DNA of 64,000 nucleotides from Gammaproteobacteria bacterium. Lineage in GTDB: Bacteria > Pseudomonadota > Gammaproteobacteria > CBDBBL01. The position numbers and the translations under genes are program-made. This document shows, in pieces, positions 4,354-40,605 of the stretch (position 1 is its first letter; every line of letters begins with the position of its first letter). The DNA lies in contig CBDBBL010000001.1 in the NCBI GenBank assembly GCA_965203125.1, positions 40,971-104,970 on the forward strand. The letters are read 5' to 3'. The notes beneath the pieces are model-generated. The model ran no database searches, was not told the origin of the DNA, and was given only the letters and a program-made list of their open reading frames with translations.

Positions 4354-5127
4354 TTAAAGTTTGTAATTCAGACTAAGCAAGCCGATGGCATATCGCGCAC
4401 CACCACTACTAGTAACCGGTAAGTTTGCATTCATGATGGAAGGACTGCGACCGAATGTGCCAAAGTAAGATAGTTCAGCACTGGTCTTATGATTGAATTG
4501 ATAGCCCAATCCAAGCTGATAAGACCCTTGCAAACTGTTGTGAACAGGGTGTAGGTTAATTCGTTGCAAGAATGCACCAACGCCAGCAGAGGCATACCAG
4601 TTGTGCACTAGGTTAACTTTAGTGCTAAGCATGAGGTTCAAAGCTTCTTGAATTTCGACATCTTGAGGAGTTTCTCCATCTGCATAACTACGCTGGGTAT
4701 AGATGGAAACATAAGAACCAGTCATCAAGCCAAGTGAAGCGTTGAAGCTGGTACGTTTATATTGAGCAAACTCTAAACCCAGTACAATATTACCAACAGC
4801 ATTAGTGCTGGTTTTACCTGTCATGTTTTTACCACCGACCTCACCATAGCCAGCACCTAATGAAATATAAGGCTCAGCTTTCCATTGAAAATCAGGCGTA
4901 GGCAAATTCGCTACAAGCGTGGTATGTGGTGAAGAATGCCCAATGGCATGATCTGTGTTAGAAGAAAGGCGCGGTGTTGCAGCGTGTGCAACACCACTAA
5001 CGGAAGTTACCGCCATAGCTAATAAAAAAGAGGCTGACAAACCACCTGTCTTAGGTTGAGTGGCATGAATAGAAAAAGAACGCATAACTAAACTCCTTAG
5101 AGCATAACTACGCCTCGGTAGGCACAT
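4354..5127 (-). CDS. small outer-membrane beta-barrel protein; the true start is probably the internal Met at about 5085
   Basis: A signal peptide begins at MRSFSIHA...AHAA. The protein shows alternating beta-strand patterns. It is homologous to the OMP at 16958..17593 (EPYISLGAGYGEVGGKN versus KPYLDISTGFGTIGGKN). Confidence 0.5.
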   Translation of the reverse strand: MCLPRRSYALRSLVMRSFSIHATQPKTGGLSASFLLAMAVTSVSGVAHAATPRLSSNTDHAIGHSSPHTTLVANLPTPDFQWKAEPYISLGAGYGEVGGKNMTGKTSTNAVGNIVLGLEFAQYKRTSFNASLGLMTGSYVSIYTQRSYADGETPQDVEIQEALNLMLSTKVNLVHNWYASAGVGAFLQRINLHPVHNSLQGSYQLGLGYQFNHKTSAELSYFGTFGRSPSIMNANLPVTSSGGARYAIGLLSLNYKL

Positions 5128-5924
5128 AGACGAACCATAATCTATAACAATATAGAAGACGGCACGAAAGTGCTGGCATCAATTAATGCGACGCATCCAC
5201 GGGTGTCACCGAAAAGGTGGCACTCGGGCTTTGCCCGACCATTAACCCATGCGAGCTACGGGAGGAGACGCAGAAAGCAACGATTAAAAATCAGACAAAA
5301 ATAAAACGTGTCACACTGGTAAAAGTCCTAAGACAGCCAGCAGGTGATATCAGTCGTTTGTTGAGAGTACTGTGTATCCAGTACAGCGTTCTCTCGAACA
5401 CCAATATCGGGTGACAGTTTATGGAAGTTTTTGATTTGTGAACCTCGGGTGGTTCAGTTAAAATGCGATCATTCATTTAGCAACCTTTCTCGTTGTTATT
5501 TGATAGCGAGTCTGAGGTGTTTCAGCACCGAGGACTCGCGCCAATTTCATATCAGCGACGACCACTATAACAAAACAAAATAGCCGAAACAAATCTCTAT
5601 CTGTTTTGAAGTATGGTGTCGCCACCTACCATATTTTTTAAGCGATAACGCTGGTTACAATTAAGTGACGCAACCACCGCAAAGCAGGATCATCATCACT
5701 GTGTCGATGCGATAAGCCTCGAGGGTGTTGATGTGTGAGCTTTAGATTTTATAGATAGATTTAGATGGTGACCGAAAACTATTACTTTTGGCCATACTGG
5801 TTGTTTATCAATAACTCCTTGATTTATAATGATGGAGATCGAGTGATTTTAGAAATCTTGAGAGTCAAAACGACCCAATATTTGACATAGGTAAGATGAG
5901 GAAATTTAAAGCAGCGTAGGTATA

Positions 5925-6085
5925 TACCCATCACCATTCAAGAAACCGAGCTTTAACAAAATGAATTTTAGTGAAATTAGATTTAAAAAATCGAGTAATA
6001 GCAAGCCATTGCAAAAGTTTTTAAATGTCAATTTTGCAAAATCCATGAAGTTAAAGCTCGGTTTCTTGAATGGTGATGAGTATAT
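5925..6085. repeat. MITE-like element copy b (29-bp perfect terminal inverted repeat catcaccattcaagaaaccgagctttaac)
   Basis: The perfect inverted repeat spans 5927-5957 versus 6050-6083. The internal core gatttaaaaaa..gtaatagcaagccattgcaaaagttttt is shared with the copies at 13760 and 40380. Confidence 0.6.
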
Positions 6086-12484: not shown

Positions 12485-12638
12485 AATAATTCCAATTAAA
12501 AATGTGATATTTTAAACAAATAATTTTGTGTAGAATATGGCTTAAATACTTGAGTAATATCTGGCTATTGCGAAATTATTTAAGCTCTATTATGCCGAAA
12601 GTATGCATTTAAAATATCACATTTTCAATTGGAATTAT
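12485..12638. repeat. intergenic inverted-repeat element (32-bp TIR ataataattccaattaaaaatgtgatatttta) between pheS and pheT
   Basis: 12485-12516 is the reverse complement of 12607-12638 with one mismatch. The repeats flank about 90 bp of AT-rich sequence. Confidence 0.6.
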
Positions 12639-13681
12639 TATCTAAATTGCTCCAACACATCCAACTCATTTTTAAACAAAGTTCGTAGATCATCCATACC
12701 ATAATAAAGCATCGCTAAACGATCTAAGCCCATTCCAAAAGCAAAGCCTCTCCAACACTTGTCATCTTGTTCATCATCAATGCCAACATTCTTCAATACC
12801 TGAGAGTGCACCATGCCACACCCTAGAATTTCTAACCAGCCTGTTTGACCACATAAACGACACCCTTTTCCACTGCAACGCACACATTGCATATCGACTT
12901 CAGCAGAAGGCTCAGTAAATGGGAAGTAAGAAGGCCTTAGACGAATCTCTACCTCTTTGGAAAAAAACTTACCCAATACAGCTTGCAATAGCCCCACCAA
13001 TTCGGAAAAATTGGTTTTATCATCAATCAGTAAACCTTCTATTTGATGAAACATAGGTGTATGTGTTTGATCAGAATCACAACGATACACGCGACCTAAT
13101 GAAATCATTTTAAAAGGAGGTTTACCTTGCTCCATCACTCTAATTTGTACTGGCGAGGTATGTGTACGCAACACAAGCTTCTCCACATCTTGAATAAAAA
13201 ACGTATCATGCATCGCACGTGCAGGATGTGTTTCTGGAATATTGAGCTGATCAAAGTTATTCTTCTCGGTCTCAATCTCTGGGCCATATTCAATACTAAA
13301 ACCCATTGAAGAAAAAATCTTAACCATTCGTTCTTTGACTAAAGTAACTGGGTGCTTTGCACCACGAAGCTTACCCAAACCAGGCAAAGTCACATCAATT
13401 ACTTCGTCTTTCAACTTAGCAGCCCACACAGCTGACTCTAATTCACTTTTCTTCGCCATCAACGCTTGCTGCAATTGAGTTTTACACTGATTAATGATTT
13501 GCCCCATTTCTTTGCGCTCATCTGGAGACATTTTTCCCAGCCCTTTGAGCAACTGTGTTAACCGCCCCTTTTTTCCCAAATATCGTACACGAATCGCATC
13601 CAAATCATCCAACTTCGCAACTGATTTAATTTCTTCCAGCGCCTGTTCTAGCAACTGATCTAACTCATTCTGCATTAACAT
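12638..13681 (-). CDS. pheS: phenylalanine--tRNA ligase alpha subunit
   Basis: A 347-aa ORF with class II aaRS motifs, located upstream of pheT. Confidence 0.9.
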   Translation of the reverse strand: MLMQNELDQLLEQALEEIKSVAKLDDLDAIRVRYLGKKGRLTQLLKGLGKMSPDERKEMGQIINQCKTQLQQALMAKKSELESAVWAAKLKDEVIDVTLPGLGKLRGAKHPVTLVKERMVKIFSSMGFSIEYGPEIETEKNNFDQLNIPETHPARAMHDTFFIQDVEKLVLRTHTSPVQIRVMEQGKPPFKMISLGRVYRCDSDQTHTPMFHQIEGLLIDDKTNFSELVGLLQAVLGKFFSKEVEIRLRPSYFPFTEPSAEVDMQCVRCSGKGCRLCGQTGWLEILGCGMVHSQVLKNVGIDDEQDDKCWRGFAFGMGLDRLAMLYYGMDDLRTLFKNELDVLEQFR

Positions 13682-13714
13682 TCCTATGTCGTCATAATCA
13701 ATAGACCCAAACCA

Positions 13715-13865
13715 CTTGAAGACGCCGAAGCTTCAACAAGATAATTTTAAGCAGTATTGGATTTAAAAAAACTAAGTAATAGCAAGCTATTGCACAGTTT
13801 TTTAAAAGCTAATAATGCCAAAATTATGCAATTAAAGTCCAGTATCTTCAAGTAGTTTGGGTATA
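13715..13865. repeat. MITE-like element copy c (imperfect TIRs cttgaagacgccgaagcttcaac / ...gtatcttcaag)
   Basis: Its core ggatttaaaaaaactaagtaatagcaagctattgcacagtttttt is about 85% identical to 5978-6025. Confidence 0.5.
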
Positions 13866-14269
13866 ACCTCAAGATTCTAGCAAACTTTCCCATATTGCCC
13901 CAGTAAATCATTCATGCCGCCGTCAGCCTTGTGAAAACACAAGCAAGACAGTCTTTAAATCAAACATCTCATCTCGTTTCCGAATACACGCTAGAAGAAT
14001 CCATTTCTACAGATTACTGCAATTCAGCATTACATCATTTAAAAGCAAGCACGCATCATCACCCATTCCCAAACCACACAGTTGAACAGGTGATGGTACA
14101 ACTGGTTACAAACCAGCCTTTATTGCAAGCACAAACGTAATACTCACTATCGTTTTCATTCTCCGATCATGAGATTTGACTGTTTTCTATTCTAGCTTAA
14201 TTGGCAGTTTTCATGCTCATTTTATACTGGAAACATGAGACCCCTTTCATGCTCATTTTATATTGGACA

Positions 14270-14860
14270 ACACTTTATCTTGACATTAGCACTGTTTTTG
14301 GCACGATTGGCGGTAAGAATACGTATTTGAGCACTCAAAGCACCTCATTTCAACAAATTGCATTTGGAGCCGATTTCTATTCTGTGAAAAACTTCAAACT
14401 AGCTGCTGATGTGTTATATTTGACTGGGACAAATAACGTGGGGGTTAAAAAAACTGGTATTAGCGCTCTGGGTGAATTTGTCAATGCTGGTGGTGCGGTT
14501 GGTAACGTTGGAAGCTTAAAATGGCTATCAAATCCATCCATCCATTCAGAGCTGAAGAATTTATGTTTGACTCTATCTAAGAAGAAGACTACGATTTGCA
14601 GAGTTACAAAAAGATTTACCTTTCTAGGTTACTCATTATCTGAAAATGAAGGTCTGAGATTATCTAGAGAAACGCTAAGACCGCATAGAAATAAACTAAA
14701 GCGGCTTTATGAGCAAAAAAGATCTAACGATCTTTTGCGTGTTTATGTTATGCATTTTTGGCGCTGGGTGAAAAGTGGTGTTGATGATATCATTGACACC
14801 AATTACTTAAACAATGTCATGCTTTTATATATTAACTCCTATTTCAAATTAGCTAAATAA
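14270..14860 (+). pseudogene. deletion remnant fusing an OMP 5' fragment to the 3' third of the reverse transcriptase gene (ORF 14201..14860)
   Basis: 14270-14512 matches 17075-17320 in the OMP. 14513-14860 matches 18323-18668 (the RT C-terminus, with an extra atcc). The junction lies at cggttgg/cgttgg microhomology. The OMP signal peptide and the RT catalytic domain are both absent. Confidence 0.7.
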
Positions 14861-14911
14861 CTTTTTTGGATTCGATTTAATTTCTCAGCATGACTCTATA
14901 CGAGACGACCT

Positions 14912-15466
14912 ATGACTAAACTTCTACTATTAGCCTTAACTCTCAACGCAATTGCACTATCTGTTTTTGCCACTCCCACTTGTAACATCTACCTTAAAGG
15001 TAACACCGCCACTGCTGCGTACTGGCAATGCCTAGCTAACGAAAATGGCTTAACGCCACAACAGGAACGTGCTATTACAGACAACTCTGCCAAGGTAGGC
15101 ATTACGGCCATCCAAGCAAGCCAAATCCAATCCAACCAAAATTTCACCTTCATGAACCTCAAATCTGTGATTACCCTTGCTACGGTTCGCACTGTTACCT
15201 TTATCATAAGCGACTCTTTAAGCGCGGCAGATAAAACTCAAGCCGTTGACGGCACAATTTCTGCTAACACACAGTACCTCTTCACATGCATCCCTAACGG
15301 CGTTACTGACCAAATCACTACTTCGAGCGGGAACCCTATCATGAATGTTTCGTTCGTTACCTCGCCCTTCTCCTTCACTTGGACTACTGACAGTTCCTCC
15401 GAACTAAACCTTATGACTAACTCCGGAACGCTCACTTGCTCCGCGAAACTGACAAGATATGGCTAA
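14912..15466 (+). CDS. small secreted pilin-like protein, a divergent paralogue of 18720..19220
   Basis: It has a signal peptide (MTKLLLLALTLNAIALSVFA). Its flank is conserved with 18669-18725. It shares the motif YLFTCIPNGVTD with the paralogue (YLLTCIPNGTTT), plus PFSFT and TC..LT. Confidence 0.5.
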   Translation: MTKLLLLALTLNAIALSVFATPTCNIYLKGNTATAAYWQCLANENGLTPQQERAITDNSAKVGITAIQASQIQSNQNFTFMNLKSVITLATVRTVTFIISDSLSAADKTQAVDGTISANTQYLFTCIPNGVTDQITTSSGNPIMNVSFVTSPFSFTWTTDSSSELNLMTNSGTLTCSAKLTRYG

Positions 15467-15494
15467 CACGGAAAAGTTTGATGAGATATGATAC

Positions 15495-16440
15495 TCTTTA
15501 GAAGAGATGAATATGATAGTGATTAGCTAAAGTGAAAGCATACAGTCAAGACCTGAGAGATCGTGTGATAAAGCAATACGAACAGGGAAATAGAAGCAAA
15601 GCAAAATTAGCACAGCTATTTCAATTGGGGACATCAACAGTAGATAGGTGGATCAAGAGATACAAATCGACAGGTGAATGCAGATCATTCCAAGGACTGG
15701 GTTGTGGACGTAAAACACGCTTTGATGATAAACAGGCTATCTTGTCTTATCTTAGTGAGAATGAAGATGCTAATGCTATTGAGATGCGGGATGATCTATT
15801 TCCAGGTTGCACTATGTCAACCTGGTATGACACTTTGGCTAGAATGGGAATAACCTATAAAAAAAAGAGCCAAAGTATAAGCAACGATCAGAAAAACAAC
15901 GAGCAAGCTTTCTGGATGAGCTGGGGAAAGCGCCCTTGAATAAGCGCATATATTTAGATGAAATGGGGATAGATGATAACATCGTTGTGCAGTATGGATG
16001 GGCACCTTTGGGAAAACGTAGTTATGCTGAACAGTCTGGCTGTAAAAAAGAGCGCCTGAGTGTTGTAGCAGCTTATCAATGGAATGATAAAAAATTACTC
16101 AGCCCTTTTGAATTTTCTGGTCGAATGGATAGCGCTTTATTTTCAGGGTGGTTTGAAAATGTATTATGCCCTGAATTACAGCAAGGTCAGGTGATTATTA
16201 TGGATAACGCAACTTTCCACAAAAGTTCTGAGCTACACGAAATTGCAGAGAAATATGGCTGTCGAATTTTATTTCTTCCAGACTATTCTCCAGACTTAAA
16301 CACCATAGAGAAGGTATGGGCTAATGTGAAAGGAAGATTCAGAAAGATCATTAAATTAGCTGACAATTTTCAAGATGCTATCACTCAAGCTTTCAATCAA
16401 ACTTTCCCGTGTTAGCTATAGTTCCTACAACATCACTAAA
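15495..16440 (+). mobile_element. IS630/Tc1-mariner family insertion sequence (orfA 15532..15939 HTH; orfB 15936..16415 DDE; split frame)
   Basis: OrfA has an HTH (TSTVDRWIKRYKSTGE). OrfB contains DEMG...IIMDNATFHKS...DYSPDLNTIEKVWANVK, which matches the IS630 DDE core. Confidence 0.7.
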
Positions 16441-16855
16441 ACGGCGGATTTAAACTAGTTACCGCAACTTTCAGTTTTTATTTTGTCGTTAAAATTCACG
16501 TGGGGTTCGAAAATACCAACTCTTCGGGGTCTATTTAATTCACCTTCAACCGAAACATATGATTCGTGACTTGCTTGATTACTAGGATTACCAAATGGGA
16601 ATTTACCGCAAATCAGAACTGTTACACAACGGTTGCTGCTCTGTGGATAAACTTACCTTTCCTGCTCCACTTTCTTTGACTGTAAACCTACCTTTGTCCA
16701 ATCGCACATCATCTTGCACGAACCAGTGTAAAATGCCACGGTATAATCGTCTTTTTATTCATACTCGATTGATGACGATTTAAATGCCCACAGTTCTTTG
16801 TGATGTTCCGAATATAACACAGCTATCGTCGTCAGTAGATGGGTGTTTTTAGGGG

Positions 16856-16886
16856 GTTACTCTCAAACCACCTGAACCTATACAAT
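16856..16886 (+). mobile_element. solo IS481-family right-end remnant (ctcaaaccacctgaacctataca)
   Basis: It is identical to the last 25 bp or so of the IS481-like copies at 20885-20909 and 27400-27425. Confidence 0.6.
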
Positions 16887-16957
16887 ACAACTGTTGTAAA
16901 AAGGACTAAGCTAAGATACAGTTCGTTGCTAGTAGAGAAGTAACGAAAGGAATTTGT

Positions 16958-17593
16958 GTGATGATGAATTTTAAATTAAAGACCTTACTGATATCTGCAT
17001 GTGTTTTAAGTGTCGCAGCATGTTATGCTGATTCTCTAACAGCAAATATTTGGACTAGCTCTAAAATAAAACCTTATCTTGACATTAGTACTGGTTTTGG
17101 CACGATTGGCGGTAAGAATACGTATTTGAGCACTCAAAACACCTCATTTCAACAAATTGCATTTGGAGCCGATTTCTATTCTGTGAAAAACTTCAAACTA
17201 GCTGCTGATGTGTTATATTTGACTGGGATAAATAACGTGGGGGTTAAAAAAACTGGTATTAGCGCTCCGGGTGAATTTGTCAACGCTGGTGGTGCGGTTG
17301 GTGTTGAGGGAGGCATAACAACTCCGTCATATGAACATTTTAACCTGAACATGAAGTTAGGAGTTATAGTGCAACGGTTATCACCAGGGAGTAGCGCGAC
17401 TGCTAACCCAAAGACCACTTTTCAACCAATTGCTCAAATTAACATTAATAGGTTCATTGCCGATAATACAAGCTTAGGATTTGGATACTTAATATCTTTT
17501 CCAAGCCATCATATCAGTGTAGATAGCCAAGACAATATAAAAGGATCATTGCGCATCAGCGCTGGGATGATAACATTAAATCACTACTTTTAA
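16958..17593 (+). CDS. small outer-membrane beta-barrel protein (C-terminal ...TLNHYF)
   Basis: A signal peptide plus amphipathic beta strands with a terminal aromatic residue. It is a paralogue of 4354..5127. Confidence 0.55.
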   Translation: MMMNFKLKTLLISACVLSVAACYADSLTANIWTSSKIKPYLDISTGFGTIGGKNTYLSTQNTSFQQIAFGADFYSVKNFKLAADVLYLTGINNVGVKKTGISAPGEFVNAGGAVGVEGGITTPSYEHFNLNMKLGVIVQRLSPGSSATANPKTTFQPIAQININRFIADNTSLGFGYLISFPSHHISVDSQDNIKGSLRISAGMITLNHYF

Positions 17594-17594
17594 T

Positions 17595-18668
17595 ATGATA
17601 TCTCAGAGTAAAGAGAGAAATATAATAAGTCAATTAGCATCTACCCAGAAGCTTCATGAGAGTTATTTGCTTTTAAGAAAAAAGAGGACAACAAAGAACA
17701 ACATAGCATCTCAACATGATGACTTTTGGGCGCTAAGCTTAGCGTGGGATACAATTAAAAAAGATACGAGGATATCCTTGCAAAATGGTGATTATCAAAT
17801 CTCACCATTGAAATTATACACTAAAGGCGAGCATTTGCTTTCGAAATGGGATAGCTTAGACTGGATAATTCTGAAATCTTTGTCCACACAATTAAAAGGA
17901 ATTCTTTTAGCCCCATTTGTATCTCACGCTAATGTGTATAGTATATCTGGAGACAATAAGCAAAGCGGCATCAAAAAATGTTTGCGAGCTGTTTCCAATA
18001 AACTAAATAACAAAGCAGCTAATTTTGTTTTCAAAACTGATATAAAAGATTTTTACCAAAGCATTGACCCGAAAATATTAATGAATAAATTAAAACTTCA
18101 TATTCAGGATACACGAGTTATTAACTTACTAGAACAATATACATCACGTATTGAAGATTTTAATGGAGAGTACCGCAATTGCACTGGGTTGCCAAAAGGA
18201 TGTCCATTGGCACCAGTGCTGGCAAATTTTTATTTGTTAAGTTTGGATAAGGCATGCAACACCCCAGGTATTTTTTATATACGATATATGGATGATTTTT
18301 TAATTATAACCGCAAAACGTTGGAAGCTTAAAATGGCTATCAAATCCATCCATTCAGAGCTGAAGAATTTATGTTTGACTCTATCTAAGAAGAAGACTAC
18401 GATTTGCAGAGTTACAAAAAGATTTACCTTTCTAGGTTACTCATTATCTGAAAATGAAGGTCTGAGATTATCTAGAGAAACGCTAAAACGGCATAGAAAT
18501 AAACTAAAGCGGCTTTATGAGCAAAAAAGATCTAACGATCTTTTGCGTGTTTATGTTATGCATTTTTGGCGCTGGGTGAAAAGTGGTGTTGATGATATCA
18601 TTGACACCAATTACTTAAACAATGTCATGCTTTTATATATTAACTCCTATTTCAAATTAGCTAAATAA
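17595..18668 (+). CDS. standalone reverse transcriptase (357 aa; RT motifs 1-7 plus a short thumb), class unassigned
   Basis: It has FKTDIKDFYQSID (motif 2), GLPKGCPLAPVLANFYL (motif 4), YIRYMDDFLIIT (the catalytic YxDD box, here YMDD) and FTFLGYSL (motif 7). It starts 1 nt after the OMP stop codon. Confidence 0.8.
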   Translation: MISQSKERNIISQLASTQKLHESYLLLRKKRTTKNNIASQHDDFWALSLAWDTIKKDTRISLQNGDYQISPLKLYTKGEHLLSKWDSLDWIILKSLSTQLKGILLAPFVSHANVYSISGDNKQSGIKKCLRAVSNKLNNKAANFVFKTDIKDFYQSIDPKILMNKLKLHIQDTRVINLLEQYTSRIEDFNGEYRNCTGLPKGCPLAPVLANFYLLSLDKACNTPGIFYIRYMDDFLIITAKRWKLKMAIKSIHSELKNLCLTLSKKKTTICRVTKRFTFLGYSLSENEGLRLSRETLKRHRNKLKRLYEQKRSNDLLRVYVMHFWRWVKSGVDDIIDTNYLNNVMLLYINSYFKLAK

Positions 18669-18719
18669 CTTTTTTGGATTCGAGCTAATGTCTCAGCATG
18701 ACCCTATACGAGACGAACT

Positions 18720-19220
18720 ATGACTAAGCATCACCTATTAGCCTTAACTTTTACTGTTTTGACTCAACCAACTCTTGGACATCCGTCTTACCGCAACCTA
18801 ACAAAAAGTAGCTCTGCTTGTGCACATTTCACACAAAGGGGTTCTGAAGAATTTCTACCGACATGCTCGAGCCGAGACCGCCACCTTAAGACAAGTTTGC
18901 GTTTAGCAAAGCACCATGTAGGTATCATAATTCCTATCCCGACTATTGCTAACGCAACTATTAACATTACTAGCAATTTGTATGCCACTGTACTGGATGG
19001 AACTCTGGAACACGACGCGAACTACCTCCTCACATGTATTCCGAATGGGACAACTACATCATTTAACGCTTCTGGTCACAGCCCCTACCTACTCATATCA
19101 CCTAACGTGACTGTTCCGTTCTCATTCACTCTTACTACTTTATCTGATGGGCGGTTTAGACTATCTGCCGCGGGTATGACAACGTGCACAGCACAACTCA
19201 CCTATGATTCTGAAGACTAG
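18720..19220 (+). CDS. small secreted pilin-like protein (paralogue of 14912..15466)
   Basis: Signal peptide MTKHHLLALTFTVLTQPTLG. It is Thr/Ser/Asn-rich, with the shared motif TCIPNG and a C-terminal Cys. Confidence 0.5.
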   Translation: MTKHHLLALTFTVLTQPTLGHPSYRNLTKSSSACAHFTQRGSEEFLPTCSSRDRHLKTSLRLAKHHVGIIIPIPTIANATINITSNLYATVLDGTLEHDANYLLTCIPNGTTTSFNASGHSPYLLISPNVTVPFSFTLTTLSDGRFRLSAAGMTTCTAQLTYDSED

Positions 19221-19756
19221 GCTTACGCGTAACAATTTAGTATCTCTTTACGTTTAACTAGTTCACTATTAACGCTAGATAGACTTAATTGAAATTGCAC
19301 TCATTACAACCAACTTTGCTGAGTTCCAACGCCGATTAAATCTGTTGGTTTTGACCGCCGAGCCTTGATTTCACGACGACATGGAACTTGAACTCATAAC
19401 GACCAACCCTGATCGGGGCAGCTAACCTCTGAACTCCTCTGCTCAACTACGTTGTGACCTGAACTCACAACTCCTCCATAGTTCTTTTTCTTGTCCTTGT
19501 GCAAGAAAACGCGCTTAACACCCTGTTGCGACTTTCTGCTTTAACGGTGTGGGTTACGGACTAGCTGTATGTGTTAGGCTCTGAGCACAGATATTACCAA
19601 GTGACTGTCCACAATGGTTTGCAGTTCCAAACTGTGTGAGCTAACTTGCTTTGCCTATGCTACTATTATTTCGGAAAGGTGTGTTGACGAGTCTTATTAC
19701 GTTGATCCACGCGGGCAAGAGATGAAGTCTAACCTGATATACACTTGGATTTTGTA

Positions 19757-20909
19757 AACTCCTTCTTGTATAGGTTCAGGCGTATAAGTTCAGATAGAAA
19801 TGAGACGAATTTGCAAAAATAAAAAAAGACCTCGAGAATTGAGTTGAAAATAAAGCAAAACACGAGGTCATTATGCGAATCAAAGGACTGCACAAGTCTA
19901 TTTATAAAATATATGGATATGGACGTAAACAAGAAGTTTTAATTGAATACCTAAAAAATATCAAGCGATAGTCAGTCAGTTGGAACTTTGAAAAACGCAG
20001 GAACCAATGAGAAAGAAATCCCTTCATTTGTAGGTTACTCAAGAGCTACATATTATCAATCTCGAAAAATATTTATCGATCAGAAAATGCGGTAAATTAC
20101 CACCATCACTGGCTAGGATTAAGCGAAACAGCCGAAATGGGGGGAGGCAGAAAGGCAGTTAGTGCTCTATGTTCGCAGAAAAAACAGCAACTATGGTAAG
20201 TTTAAAATAACCCATATATTGAAGCGAGGTCATCAGTGTCAGATGAGTGAAAGCACAGTAGGCAGGATATTGAAACACTTGCTAAAAAAAGGCTTGATCA
20301 CCACAACCCTATCAGCACAGCGGGCAAAAAAGAAACGTAATTTCAACAAAATGATGCTAAGCCTTGGCGATTCAAAAAGTGTGGGCAAATGAAGTTAGGC
20401 GAGCATGTTCAAATAGATCATATGACTGTACGCCACAATGGAGTAATGGTGAAGCATTTTCAGGCATGGGAACGTAAAAGCAAATATATTGGAGCACAGA
20501 TTTACACCAATGCTAGCAGTAAGTCTGCTAGAAAGTTTCTACTCGAACTGATAGAGCAAGCTCCGTTCGAGATCTTGTCGATACAGGTTGATGGAGGATC
20601 AGAGTTCATGGCTGAATTTGAGGATGCTTGTCGACAGCTGAATATACCGTTGTATGTTTTACCGCCAGCTAGCCCAAAGAAAAATGGAGGCGTAGAAAGA
20701 GGTAACCGCATTTTTAGAGAAGAGTTTTATGCCAAGCCTTCACTTCCAGATTCTCTGGGAGCAATTCGCAATGATCTTTAAAGTTGCTGTGGCTAAATAT
20801 ATTGATTACAGACCGCATTTTTCTCTTGCAGGCTTAACTCCTTTGCCTTACATTGGGAAACATAATTCCCGAGGTGATTGTTTGTCTCAAACCACCTGAA
20901 CCTATACAC
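19757..20909 (+). mobile_element. IS481-family insertion sequence, degenerate copy (transposase pseudogene 19873..20880 with several frameshifts)
   Basis: It is about 90% identical in DNA to the intact copy at 26297..27425. The terminal inverted repeats are TGTATAAGTTCAG...CTGAACCTATACA. The ORF is broken into 20162..20392 and 20389..20781. Confidence 0.75.
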
Positions 20910-40209: not shown

Positions 40210-40605
40210 CTACAATCTCGACATCTTCAGGGCGGGGTGAAAGTCCCCACCGGCGGTAATTCAACCGTATACACATCGCACTTGCATGAGTATCGTTGAT
40301 CAGCCCGCGAGCGATGATTTATACCCAAATTACTTGAAGACGTCGGACTTTAACGGCATGAGCTCGGCAGAATACAAATCTAAAAGTTTTCCCAATAGCG
40401 GTGCTATTGCTCAACCTTTTAAATCTGATTCTGCTCAAGCTCATTATGTTAAAGCCTCGGCGTCTTCAAGTAATTTAAGTATAGATAATTTCAAGTCATT
40501 GCAGATCTGGTGCATACCCAACTAGAAATCAAAATCTTCAGTTGGATTGAGTATAATTCCAGAGCCGACGGTTATAGTCCGGATGGAAGAAGATAACGAA
40601 ATGGT
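40210..40605 (+). ncRNA. FMN riboswitch (RFN element) upstream of ribD, carrying an insertion of about 135 nt in the variable loop
   Basis: The 5' half is tcttcagggcggggtgaaagtccccaccggcggtaa...agcccgcgagcg. The 3' half is ttggattgagtataattccagagccgacggttatagtccggatggaagaaga. P1 is tcttc/gaaga. All of these are hallmark conserved segments of the FMN riboswitch. Confidence 0.85.
40334..40467. repeat. MITE-like element copy d inside the FMN riboswitch (TIRs cttgaagacgtcggactttaac / gttaaagcctcggcgtcttcaag)
   Basis: A terminal inverted repeat of about 22 bp. The internal core is in reverse orientation relative to the copies at 5978 and 13760. Confidence 0.6.

Follow-up and report, generated by a model that had tools for sequence, protein, structure and literature searches.

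The window, by which we mean the whole 64,000-nt stretch of DNA that was analysed, carries three successive open reading frames on its forward strand, which is also the strand of the module parts and bracketing IS elements described below. They encode a small outer-membrane beta-barrel protein (OMP; 16958-17593, 211 aa), a reverse transcriptase (RT; 17595-18668, 357 aa) and an orphan secreted protein that we refer to as PilB (18720-19220, 166 aa). The ORF list and the junction sequence bear out the arrangement described in the first-pass annotation, with gaps of 1 nt and 51 nt that make up the only intergenic space around the RT gene. A leader read from the sequence (16885-16957) precedes the OMP gene; it begins directly after the solo end of an IS481-type element and contains an AAAGGAA ribosome-binding site 7-9 nt before a cluster of GTG/ATG starts. 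The database copy of the OMP starts at 16961 and has 210 aa, and the 76-nt OMP leader forms a weak hairpin when its folding is compared with that of shuffled sequences (z -1.3). A single base lies between the OMP stop codon and the RT start codon (tttTAAtATG), a spacing which implies that translation of the RT would be coupled to that of the OMP gene. The 51-nt spacer downstream of the RT gene (18669-18719) is about 90% identical, in pairwise alignment, to the spacer of a degenerate second copy of the module. In a consensus scan we found a promoter-like site (TTGACT-17-TACGAT, 18375-18403) inside the 3' coding region of the RT gene. The degenerate copy retains this site (14567-14595), which as a candidate promoter could drive the secreted-protein gene.

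The envelope genes and the surrounding island

The upstream protein begins with a signal peptide (MMMNFKLKTLLISACVLSVAACYA) and ends in ...ITLNHYF, an aromatic beta-signal. Its AlphaFold model contains eight long strands (pLDDT 61, pTM 0.58), and the best PDB matches of this model in Foldseek are OmpA-TM, NspA, Ail, OmpX and OprF-N (E 4e-7 to 6e-4), with TM-scores to the target of 0.57-0.64 for barrel-only PDB entries and 0.35 against the full-length 346-aa OmpA model. With moderate confidence, the small barrel proposed at first pass can be taken as an eight-stranded outer-membrane protein of the OmpA/OmpX/Ail type. A weak paralogue with a marginal OMP_b-brl match lies in the window at 4354-5127; a word-indexed search returned no homologues beyond the window's own copies, and the PDB sequence search was empty.

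The downstream protein had been described as small, secreted and pilin-like. PilB does begin with a segment resembling a signal peptide, its C-terminal half is rich in beta structure, C106 and C156 are a conserved Cys pair, and its C-terminal motif is ...AQLTY, but the pilin-like part of the description found no support from Pfam, PDB, homologues or profiles. The Pfam search gave only a sub-threshold match to CUB_2 (E 0.048; 13.9 bits, with the cut-off at 23) and no fimbrial family, the PDB sequence search gave no match, and profile comparison with hhalign gave probabilities of 0.06% against the adhesins that follow UG4 RTs and 0.35% against fimbrial subunits. The AF2 model of PilB, made from a two-sequence alignment, is strand-rich and at a pLDDT of 34 unusable. 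Its paralogue PilA (14912-15466, 184 aa, with the last codons supplied by the end of an IS630 element) is 31% identical to it (BLASTP, E 1e-16). For PilA and PilB together, a word-indexed search returned only the window's own copies, and an exhaustive HMMER search of their profile against 1.84 billion representatives returned only spurious multi-stretch matches of repeat proteins to a low-complexity insert.

PilA belongs to the degenerate copy of the module (copy A), which is absent from the first-pass annotation and lies 2.8 kb upstream at 14272-15466. Its OMP fragment (14272-14503; repeat search, alignment) covers codons about 39-116, has no signal peptide and is 97% identical to 17071-17302. 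Through a deletion of roughly 1 kb, at the junction of GGTGCGGTTGGT and AACGTTGGAAGC, this fragment is fused to the 3' part of an RT gene (14504-14860, residues about 242-357), which is about 99% identical to 18316-18668 (repeat search, alignments, tblastn). The larger part of the OMP and RT genes is gone from copy A, which has kept the downstream secreted-protein gene, so maintenance of that gene does not require the RT. A tandem 23-nt repeat (TTTCATGCTCATTTTATAYTGGA, 36-nt spacing, 14209-14273) stands where copy A is truncated at its 5' end. The second unit of this repeat plus 6 nt equals the first 29 nt of contig L175, the carrier of the nearest RT homologue, and this 29-nt element had no match in viral contigs.

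Both copies lie among insertion sequences. An IS630-family element (15458-16420; HTH_Tnp_IS630 and DDE_3 in two frames by Pfam, 25-nt terminal inverted repeats, one at 15458-15482) is inserted at the PilA end, between the two module copies. The solo right end of an IS481-like element (16861-16884) lies 74 nt upstream of the OMP start and is identical at 24 of 24 positions to 20885-20908 and 27399-27422. Downstream of PilB, after 560 nt of unique non-coding DNA, follows an IS481-like element with a frameshifted integrase (19782-20908; BLASTN, Pfam rve/rve_3) that is 94% identical to an intact copy at 26295-27422. The intact module is bracketed by IS elements, and one IS630 and two IS481-type insertions fall within 5 kb. 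The whole forms part of a 16.7-kb IS-riddled island of surface-protein genes that splits the rplT-pheS junction, on the chromosome and within the thrS-pheT cluster. For the large neighbouring proteins, a possible assignment as inverse autotransporters found no support in Pfam or PDB. The source organism has no sequenced close relative, and six of its housekeeping proteins form singleton clusters.

Family and catalytic residues of the reverse transcriptase

The RT consists of fingers, palm and thumb only, and Pfam RVT_1 is the sole domain in its 357 aa (E 1.9e-25). The YMDD box noted at first pass is present as RYMDDF, and in an alignment of the window RT with nine homologues D149, Y231-M-D-D234, K267 and G281 are invariant, a conservation of catalytic residues far beyond chance. 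The enzyme had been considered possibly unclassified; it matches the PADLOC model RT_UG4 with 251 bits (E 3.2e-75) over the full length of the profile, its residues 17-332 covering positions 3-305 of the 307, and is 122 bits ahead of the second-best profile, UG17, at 129 bits. The N-terminal signature of UG4 (R..P.N.DIWHLR..W ... W..DA.VLK) is present in the form DDFWALSLAW and WDSLDWIILK, the pattern DxW..L...W being shared, with R31, W45, D89 and L93 near-invariant in the alignment, and in the YxRYMDDF box Y228, Y231, M232, D233 and D234 are invariant.

UG4 reportedly stands for the "unknown group 4" of Simon and Zimmerly. The group has been placed in Class 2 of the UG/Abi RTs, without extra domains (PMC9226505). 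The window RT scores 251 bits on RT_UG4 against 400-477 bits for the RTs of the fimbrial operons of Serratia, Pantoea, Aeromonas and E. coli plasmids, and it is only 25-30% identical to this fimbria-linked core. In a rough NJ tree, made with no support values and no reference set, the window RT and P0002 form a branch that is basal to all other UG4-scoring RTs and nearer to them than UG18 or other RTs are, and its membership of UG4 could equally be described as that of a sister group. An RT from a Legionella longbeachae plasmid, which at first seemed a relative from an organism of similar kind, was rejected because it is a UG18 and not a UG4 enzyme. The window RT is a singleton in the databases, with no counterpart above 32% identity among the GTDB species representatives; its nearest homologues (41-34% identity) stand alone, with neither OMP nor secreted-protein partners. 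We consider it very probable that the enzyme is a divergent, deep-branching member of UG4 (Class 2 UG/Abi, group-II-intron-like, RT domain only) in a small envelope-protein operon.

In a PDB sequence search, group II intron RTs come out as the nearest enzymes of known structure (GsI-IIC, E 1e-37), followed by the G2L4 RT of Pseudomonas aeruginosa (E 6e-20). The window RT shares with them typical motifs 3-7 and the thumb, and like the G2L RTs it is free-standing and has a bulky residue before the DD. It differs from the group II intron RTs in having neither intron RNA nor a D or En domain, and it carries the UG4 signature in place of motifs 1-2; there is no evidence for a repair role. The first-pass annotation had denied a group II intron arrangement, and our searches agree: neither Intron_gpII nor D1-D4 was found in the 64 kb at the Rfam gathering threshold or in 13700-20000 at E<=1, the upstream OMP frame is intact to 1 nt before the RT (636 nt coding), and the RT scores 115.6 bits on the maturase model TIGR04416, for which the cut-off is 300.

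The same data bear on whether the RT is a decaying, functionless retroelement remnant in an IS-eroded island, which we regard as highly unlikely. Such erosion is visible in copy A, destroyed by 5' truncation and the 1-kb internal deletion, and in the three insertions nearby, and the singleton status of the RT would fit it as well. The 357-codon frame, however, is intact with every catalytic residue, the alignment with the nearest homologue extends right through the C-terminus, the UG4 family as aligned retains its catalytic residues down to about 25% identity, and no remnant of intron or retron RNA was found in the Rfam searches.

Adhesion-gene neighbours and the break in homology

Fimbrial domains (FimA/FimC/FimD) occur in 66% of UG4 neighbourhoods according to myRT (PMC8934634), and for one UG4 subgroup Mestre et al. 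2022 described adjoining clusters of fimbrial genes (PMC9226505). With this link already published, the coupling to envelope genes, which the first-pass annotation found unlike classical retron effectors and known DGR layouts, is a known habit of the family and not a new layout. In the canonical arrangement, seen in Serratia, Pantoea, Aeromonas and E. coli plasmids, the RT gene comes after those for the usher, the chaperone and the PF00419 subunits and before that for a secreted adhesin. Other UG4 RTs neighbour an inverse autotransporter, TcfC/invasin operons or PAN-domain adhesin operons, and the family is recurrently associated with five kinds of adhesion systems. UG4 is present in 5 of 5426 complete E. 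coli genomes, and the E. coli operon is represented by only six near-identical plasmid copies, which are uninformative on micro-diversity.

The window RT resembles the fimbrial UG4 RTs in its full-length profile match, its N-terminal signature and its YxRYMDDF box. All consist of the RT domain only (about 320-360 aa), are often flanked by IS elements, and lie co-oriented with and start/stop-coupled to an upstream envelope gene, with a highly variable secreted-protein gene after them: the RT start overlaps the upstream stop in E. coli, the genes overlap by 8 nt in Aeromonas, and the gap in the window is 1 nt. The slot behind the RT gene, here taken by PilB, belongs to the tip-adhesin gene in canonical UG4 operons. 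The differences are that the window RT is basal and lies on a chromosome, inside the thrS-pheT cluster, that its upstream partner is an eight-stranded barrel and not a pilus subunit, and that PilB, for which no homologue could be detected, is only half as large as the two-domain adhesin normally present. No usher, chaperone (PapD) or PF00419 protein was found among the flanking ORFs or the large ORFs of the window. Absence of the OMP-RT-PilB triad from related genomes, together with an RT always in a different, known context, had been named as grounds against a coupled unit, and about half of this is what we found: phmmer searches of all ORFs of 172 related loci in genomes, plasmids and metagenomes gave no match for the OMP, PilA or PilB, although close relatives of the organism are not among sequenced genomes, and the relatives of the RT lie in chaperone-usher operons or alone. 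As the nearest homologues of the RT have no envelope partners, a point against the envelope link, that link may be secondary.

These neighbourhoods weigh on an alternative that we think unlikely, namely that the RT is a domesticated polymerase of group-II-intron-like type that works autonomously, at a job unrelated to its neighbours such as G2L4-like break repair by MMEJ or the maintenance of plasmids or other mobile elements, and rides on mobile, well-expressed surface operons. Basal UG4 members occur singly with unrelated genes on either side, most UG4 loci are surrounded by IS elements and plasmids, no conserved partner or ncRNA accompanies the RT, and the closest solved structures are those named above. 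The G2L4 RT has a YIDD active site and has been shown to act in DNA-break repair by MMEJ (bioRxiv 10.1101/2022.03.14.484287), and the bulky YMDD of the window RT, instead of YADD, may parallel it. However, the similarity to G2L4 is weaker than that to mobile intron RTs and no repair genes lie nearby, and hitch-hiking is hard to reconcile with a repeated, co-oriented and start/stop-overlapping link to five kinds of adhesion systems and with the 66% fimbrial co-occurrence.

The fixed place of the RT between the structural genes and the terminal gene, the apparent translational coupling in E. coli, Aeromonas and the window, and the PapB/PapI-type regulators in E. coli UG4 loci would fit an RT that acts in cis as a regulator of its operon, binding or copying the polycistronic mRNA and so setting the amount or timing of the last, adhesin-like product. 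Group II intron RTs bind their own mRNA, which counts in the same direction. We nevertheless hold such regulation to be improbable, given that strict conservation of the catalytic residues argues for DNA synthesis over RNA binding alone, that basal relatives lie outside operons, and that no conserved RNA structure was found by Rfam or by folding the leader and the stretch after PilB.

Within the canonical operons the conservation between pairs of loci ends abruptly. The ushers are 66-76% identical, the subunits 36-82% and the RTs 57-89%, whereas the protein after the RT is unalignable (21-42% over 16-112 residues), with one exception of 36% over 262 residues. Whether four pairs of operons are compared or the P. 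ananatis operon with over 10 operons on plasmids, DNA homology always stops at the 3' end of the RT gene. In Klebsiella sp. and Cedecea no stop codon separates the RT frame from the adhesin gene, into which it continues. A comparable pattern is seen between the window's two copies, which are about 99% identical as far as the stop of the RT gene and about 90% identical across the spacer, and whose next genes encode proteins of 31% identity.

These observations would agree with an RT that drives turnover of the downstream gene, by copying the 3' part of the operon transcript or switching templates onto another mRNA, so that cDNA replaces or mutates the next gene in the manner of a DGR with no separate template repeat. 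We judge this quite unlikely. A homologous operon that has no RT, on a plasmid of Winslowiella toletana, breaks at the same place, at the start of the terminal adhesin, so adhesin hypervariability does not need the RT; what this control shows is that variability can arise without the RT, and a contribution by the enzyme is possible. The claim that no DGR template/variable pair is visible also held: there is no direct repeat of at least 35 nt in 16800-19800, and the repeats in 13500-21200 are the module duplication and the IS ends only. Nor was a template repeat found in four canonical UG4 loci. The differences between the window copies have no adenine bias in the alignment, motif 4 of the RT aligns as group-II type and not DGR type, no Avd-type accessory gene was found among the flanking ORFs (Pfam, NCBIfam), and the loss of the RT from copy A left the variable gene there in place. 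The locus is like a DGR in that a compact RT lies beside a variable gene for a surface or secreted protein, with a sharp boundary between conserved and variable parts. It is unlike one in that the RT comes from a different clade, that the variable part in UG4 is a whole gene or N-terminal domain and not a C-terminal patch, and that RT-less fimbrial operons are equally variable. The idea that UG4 RTs are a repeat-less, self-templated counterpart of DGRs, in which the operon transcript or other mRNAs serve to replace or mutate the next gene and the window copies are a snapshot of the process, accordingly strikes us as hardly probable.

A possible safeguard role and its meaning for UG4

No published function for UG4 was found in a literature search. 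The experimentally tested relatives among the UG/Abi RTs (DRT2, 3, 6-9 and Abi) are antiphage systems, while UG4 is not enriched in defence islands and Mestre et al. proposed a non-defence role for it (PMC9226505). The window RT belongs to the same superfamily as the DRT2/UG2, DRT9/UG28 and AbiK-type RTs, has second-tier HMM matches to them and is, like them, a single RT protein without an effector domain. A sizeable ncRNA adjoins the RT in DRT2/UG2 and DRT9/UG28 (PMC9226505), whereas the flanks of the window RT are coding apart from the two short gaps. Models of defence RTs score below their cut-offs (Drt3a 92/200, Drt2 59/390, Drt4 33/450, AbiA 19/250), and PADLOC found no defence protein among the flanking proteins. 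The absence of retron repeats, noted earlier, was corroborated by the lack of msr/msd RNA in Rfam, of a suitable flanking inverted repeat, and of any retron RT model above its cut-off (retron_St85_RT, 69 bits against 235). The 560-nt non-coding stretch after PilB (19221-19781) folds no better than shuffled sequences (z +0.26). Canonical UG4 loci have no alignable non-coding DNA adjoining the RT.

The intact catalytic RT, its UG4 assignment, the close operon packing, the lack of intron, retron and DGR features at the RNA level and the repeated occurrence of the family beside five kinds of adhesion systems are observed, and our verdict is that the locus holds a UG4-like RT, divergent and basal, among envelope genes that are a new setting for it. 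The best overall explanation, to which we give a probability of about 40%, is that of a UG4-type RT in an envelope operon that serves as a transcript-templated safeguard. The RT would be made only when the surface-protein operon is expressed, by co-transcription. With no dedicated non-coding RNA and no protein partner, it would work alone, a single-protein enzyme that takes RNA from its own transcript as a template in cis. Its DNA product might then act inside the cell as a safeguard similar to the Abi and DRT systems, coupled to the display of a surface structure that phages use as receptor. This specific mechanism we regard as conceivable and on the whole doubtful. On the side against a defence reading, the RT carries no effector domain and has no identified template.

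UG4 is among the few prokaryotic RT groups that were named more than 15 years ago yet have no assigned function, and its habit of living in pilus operons has so far been noted only in passing. The window extends this habit outside the chaperone-usher world, to a minimal form of three genes for a small barrel, an RT and a small secreted protein, and suggests that the link of UG4 is to surface and adhesion proteins in general and not to pilus assembly. In the window as in the enterobacterial operons, homology does not reach beyond the RT stop codon and the gene behind it is in effect non-homologous, which gives a testable handle on function, and the RT-less control guards against over-reading this break. 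If the RT is a hitch-hiker, the locus is a modest extension of a known family; if it is a device for receptor-coupled immunity or for gene turnover, this would be a new principle.

The three-gene module and its reverse transcriptase

The intact module comprises three forward-strand ORFs, arranged as the first-pass annotation had described: a gene for an outer-membrane protein (OMP; 16958-17593, 211 aa), the RT gene (17595-18668, 357 aa) and a gene for a secreted protein, PilB (18720-19220, 166 aa). A single base lies between the TAA codon of the OMP gene and the RT start codon, and 51 nt lie between the RT stop and the start of the PilB gene; this packing of the RT with envelope genes is operon-like.

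The RT matches Pfam RVT_1 (E 1.9e-25), contains the RYMDDF motif, and shares invariant catalytic residues with nine aligned homologues (D149 of motif 3, Y231-M-D-D234, K267 and G281). Among the PADLOC RT models, that for unknown group 4 (RT_UG4) matches over the whole profile with E 3.2e-75 and 251 bits, compared to 129 bits for the second-best model, UG17; against curated models of intron maturases, retron RTs and Drt2-5/AbiA, the RT falls far under every cut-off. It had earlier been considered a possible unclassified RT system, a view that this assignment to UG4 replaces. Judged by its sequence, the RT is intact, catalytically complete and of the UG4 type. The nearest solved structures by sequence are group II intron RTs (GsI-IIC, E 1e-37), the RT of Cas6-RT-Cas1 and G2L4. 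These profile and structure matches fit the published account of UG4 as small, intron-like Class 2 UG/Abi RTs without extra domains (PMC9226505).

The best RT homologue found anywhere, P0002, is 41% identical, and the best matches in GTDB species representatives and JGI metagenomes reach 32% and 34%, respectively. Fimbria-linked RTs score 400-477 bits with RT_UG4, whereas the window RT, P0002 and the RT of a Francisellaceae MAG score 226-251. A rough neighbour-joining tree places the window RT and P0002 below every other sequence that scores as UG4. Because of these low scores and this branch position we describe the window RT as an apparently basal, UG4-like member, which could become a sister group under a proper tree. 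The RTs closest to it stand alone among unrelated genes. A role as an autonomous, intron-like polymerase that hitch-hikes near envelope genes, for example in G2L4-like repair, seems rather unlikely for the window RT. Within the RT C-terminal coding region (18581-18612) there is a near-perfect palindrome, GGTGTTGATGATATCATTGACACC, centred on GATATC and retained at 14773-14804 in copy A, a degenerate upstream copy of the module. If functional, it is more likely to be a protein-binding site than a hairpin, since it leaves no room for a hairpin loop.

The OMP starts with a signal peptide, and its C-terminus reads LNHYF. An AlphaFold model, computed from the OMP together with its fragment copy and a weak paralogue, shows eight long strands (pLDDT 61, pTM 0.58). 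The PDB entries that it matches best, with E 4e-7 to 6e-4 and a TM-score to target of 0.57-0.64, are small barrels, namely the OmpA transmembrane domain, NspA, Ail, OmpX and OprF-N. Based on the modelled strands and these structural matches, we predict with moderate confidence that the upstream protein is a small outer-membrane barrel, as had been proposed. Several of the matched proteins act as adhesins or invasins in their own right. The weak paralogue (4354-5127, reverse strand, 257 aa; tblastn E 3e-5 within the window) has a marginal OMP_b-brl match, a long N-terminal extension and no linked RT. PilB carries a signal peptide, and its C-terminal half is rich in strands; the earlier label "pilin-like" found no backing in any search. 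Against Pfam it has no fimbrial-family match (the sole match, CUB_2, is below threshold at E 0.048), the PDB yields no match, and the structure model is unusable (pLDDT 34). No PilB homologue was found by word search or by an exhaustive profile search over 1.84 billion representatives, and its profile shows no similarity to the fimbrial subunits and adhesins of related loci.

A duplicated module within a surface-protein island

The module lies in an island of roughly 16.7 kb (13700-30400) whose genes are on the forward strand, between rplT (30546-30902) and pheS (12638-13681), both on the reverse strand. The island splits the otherwise conserved cluster thrS-infC-rpmI-rplT-pheS-pheT and contains two RT modules, three IS copies and large secreted proteins; no usher, chaperone or fimbrial subunit occurs in the window. 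Three of the large secreted proteins are paralogues (21128-23599, 23911-26196 and 27642-29582, with a fragment at 29654-30271), with N-terminal 300 residues 94-98% identical, near-identical upstream DNA and shared 3' ends, and with variable C-terminal parts composed of roughly 40-aa Ser/Thr/Asn-rich repeats. They match nothing in Pfam or the PDB; by eye, the N-terminal domain looks barrel-like, and the proteins may be inverse-autotransporter-like adhesins.

A second, decayed copy of the module, absent from the first-pass annotation, lies 2.8 kb upstream of the intact one on the same strand. In this copy A, an OMP fragment (14272-14503, 97% identical to 17071-17302, codons about 39-116) is joined through a deletion of roughly 1 kb to an RT 3' fragment (14504-14860) that covers the last 116 RT codons and is about 99% identical to 18316-18668, and a paralogue of PilB follows (PilA, 14912-15466, 184 aa, 31% identical to PilB, E 1e-16). 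Identity between the two copies is about 99% up to the RT stop and about 90% across the 51-nt spacer, and it collapses inside the signal-peptide codons of the secreted-protein gene. Copy A shows that the RT is dispensable for keeping the downstream gene. A role of the RT as a cis regulator of the terminal gene appears unlikely, and it is highly improbable that the RT of the intact copy is a decaying remnant. The G+C content is 44-46% in 14750-15500 and 18750-19750, which cover PilA, PilB and the DNA that follows PilB, 32-36% in the RT and about 39% in the whole window.

An IS630 element (15458-16420, forward strand) sits on the PilA stop codon. The intact copy is bordered by a solo IS481-type end, 74 nt upstream of the OMP start, and on its right by an IS481-like element. 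The stretch 16450-16550, which lies between the IS630 end and the start of the OMP gene, is an inverted copy, 72% identical to 21006-21111 and 23761-23894, the DNA directly upstream of large secreted-protein genes, and this points to a past rearrangement inside the island. A repeat of roughly 150-165 nt, which looks like a MITE, occurs at 13702-13865, 5922-6070 and 40319-40471 (71-73% identity), and the copy beside pheS is itself imperfectly palindromic. A 29-nt sequence at the point where copy A is truncated on its 5' side (14245-14273) recurs exactly as the opening bases, positions 1-29, of the 1.27-kb metagenomic contig encoding P0002. In the window this sequence forms a tandem pair with 36-nt spacing; it could mark a recombination site or one end of a mobile element that has escaped recognition.

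The source organism (about 39% G+C, IS-rich, with a gammaproteobacterial gene order) has no sequenced close relative, because each of the six housekeeping proteins considered (L20, L35, ThrS, SecA, PheT and RecJ) forms a 90% cluster of its own among about 15 billion proteins. With even L20 and L35 singletons, fast-evolving surface proteins would seem orphans regardless.

UG4 reverse transcriptases and the variable end of surface operons

The layout had been judged unlike classical retron effectors and known DGR arrangements. The preference of UG4 for surface-protein operons is already documented, and our own survey agrees. Fimbrial domains are found in 66% of UG4 neighbourhoods according to myRT (PMC8934634), and Mestre et al. 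reported fimbrial gene clusters beside a UG4 subgroup, frequent plasmid carriage and no defence-island enrichment, and speculated on addiction or anti-defence roles (PMC9226505). Our literature search found no function assigned to UG4. In Serratia, Pantoea, Aeromonas, E. coli plasmids and metagenomic contigs we found a fixed order of usher, chaperone, PF00419 subunits, RT and a secreted protein of 200-390 aa, one of which has an MrpH_C adhesin domain. Other UG4 RTs adjoin an inverse autotransporter, a TcfC/invasin operon with a divergent OmpA-type gene, or a PAN-domain adhesin operon, and in total UG4 is repeatedly associated with five different kinds of adhesion systems. The triad of the window was sought in related loci, and none of the 172 fetched carries homologues of its OMP or secreted proteins.

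The canonical fimbrial operons are packed as tightly as the window module: in E. coli the RT start and the stop of the gene before it overlap, and Aeromonas genes overlap by 8 nt. In Klebsiella sp. BIGb0407 (locus L009, 7917-10028) and Cedecea (locus L011, 7917-10076) the RT frame enters the adhesin without a stop, giving frames of 703 and 719 aa that include a linker and, inside the frame, a signal peptide, which explains old reports of fimbrial fusions. The N-terminal adhesin parts of the two are non-homologous, and the frames could be real membrane-anchored fusions or merely overlapping genes in one frame.

Across orthologous UG4 operons the usher (66-76%), subunits (36-82%) and RT (57-89%) diverge together, and the post-RT protein is almost unalignable (21-42% over 16-112 residues, with a single exception of 36% over 262 residues), even where the RTs are 89% identical. 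DNA homology ends at the RT 3' end in four of four operon pairs: 7 nt past the RT stop in one, 15-40 nt before it in two, and, in the fused pair, with a break that spans the N-terminal two-thirds of the adhesin. More than ten plasmid operons are homologous to that of P. ananatis, and in no case does the homology continue past the RT end. The break between the two module copies of the window is similar. This shared boundary makes the RT a tempting cause of turnover of the downstream gene, but a homologous operon without the RT, on a Winslowiella toletana plasmid, is equally variable past the boundary. There the last subunit is followed directly by a 305-aa adhesin-like gene, and homology ends at the same place, so that hypervariability of the terminal gene needs no RT. 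Neither the window module nor four canonical loci contain a template-like repeat, and no adenine bias is seen at the few positions where the window copies differ; RT-driven turnover seems unlikely. The RT is, from these comparisons, an optional insert at a conserved/variable boundary.

Template search and possible role

Rfam searches of the module region, at the gathering threshold and at E<=1, detected no intron, retron or other family. The first-pass view that this is not a group II intron and has neither retron repeats nor a template/variable repeat pair is upheld by these searches, by maturase and retron models below cut-off, and by the lack of a template-like repeat in the module. Non-coding DNA near the RT is limited to a 73-nt leader (z -1.3) and 560 nt after the PilB gene (z +0.26), and canonical UG4 loci have no space for a separate RNA gene. 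The RT has no dedicated RNA or protein partner in the module, and for any RNA template the operon transcript would be the obvious candidate.

We suggest that the RT would be made together with the surface proteins and would work alone on RNA of its own transcript. Its purpose may be an Abi/DRT-like safeguard tied to expression of a phage-exposed surface structure; this is our best guess, with a probability of about 0.3, made because every tested UG/Abi relative is antiphage. Coupling to receptor operons would also account for the absence of UG4 from defence islands.

The window RT is a rare, divergent member of a known, functionally unsolved family. The UG4 family and its preference for surface-protein operons were known, but the partners here, an OmpX/Ail-like barrel and an orphan secreted protein replacing the pilus machinery, are new, as are the deep branching of the RT, the presence of a decayed duplicate, and the pattern of homology breaks together with its RT-less control.
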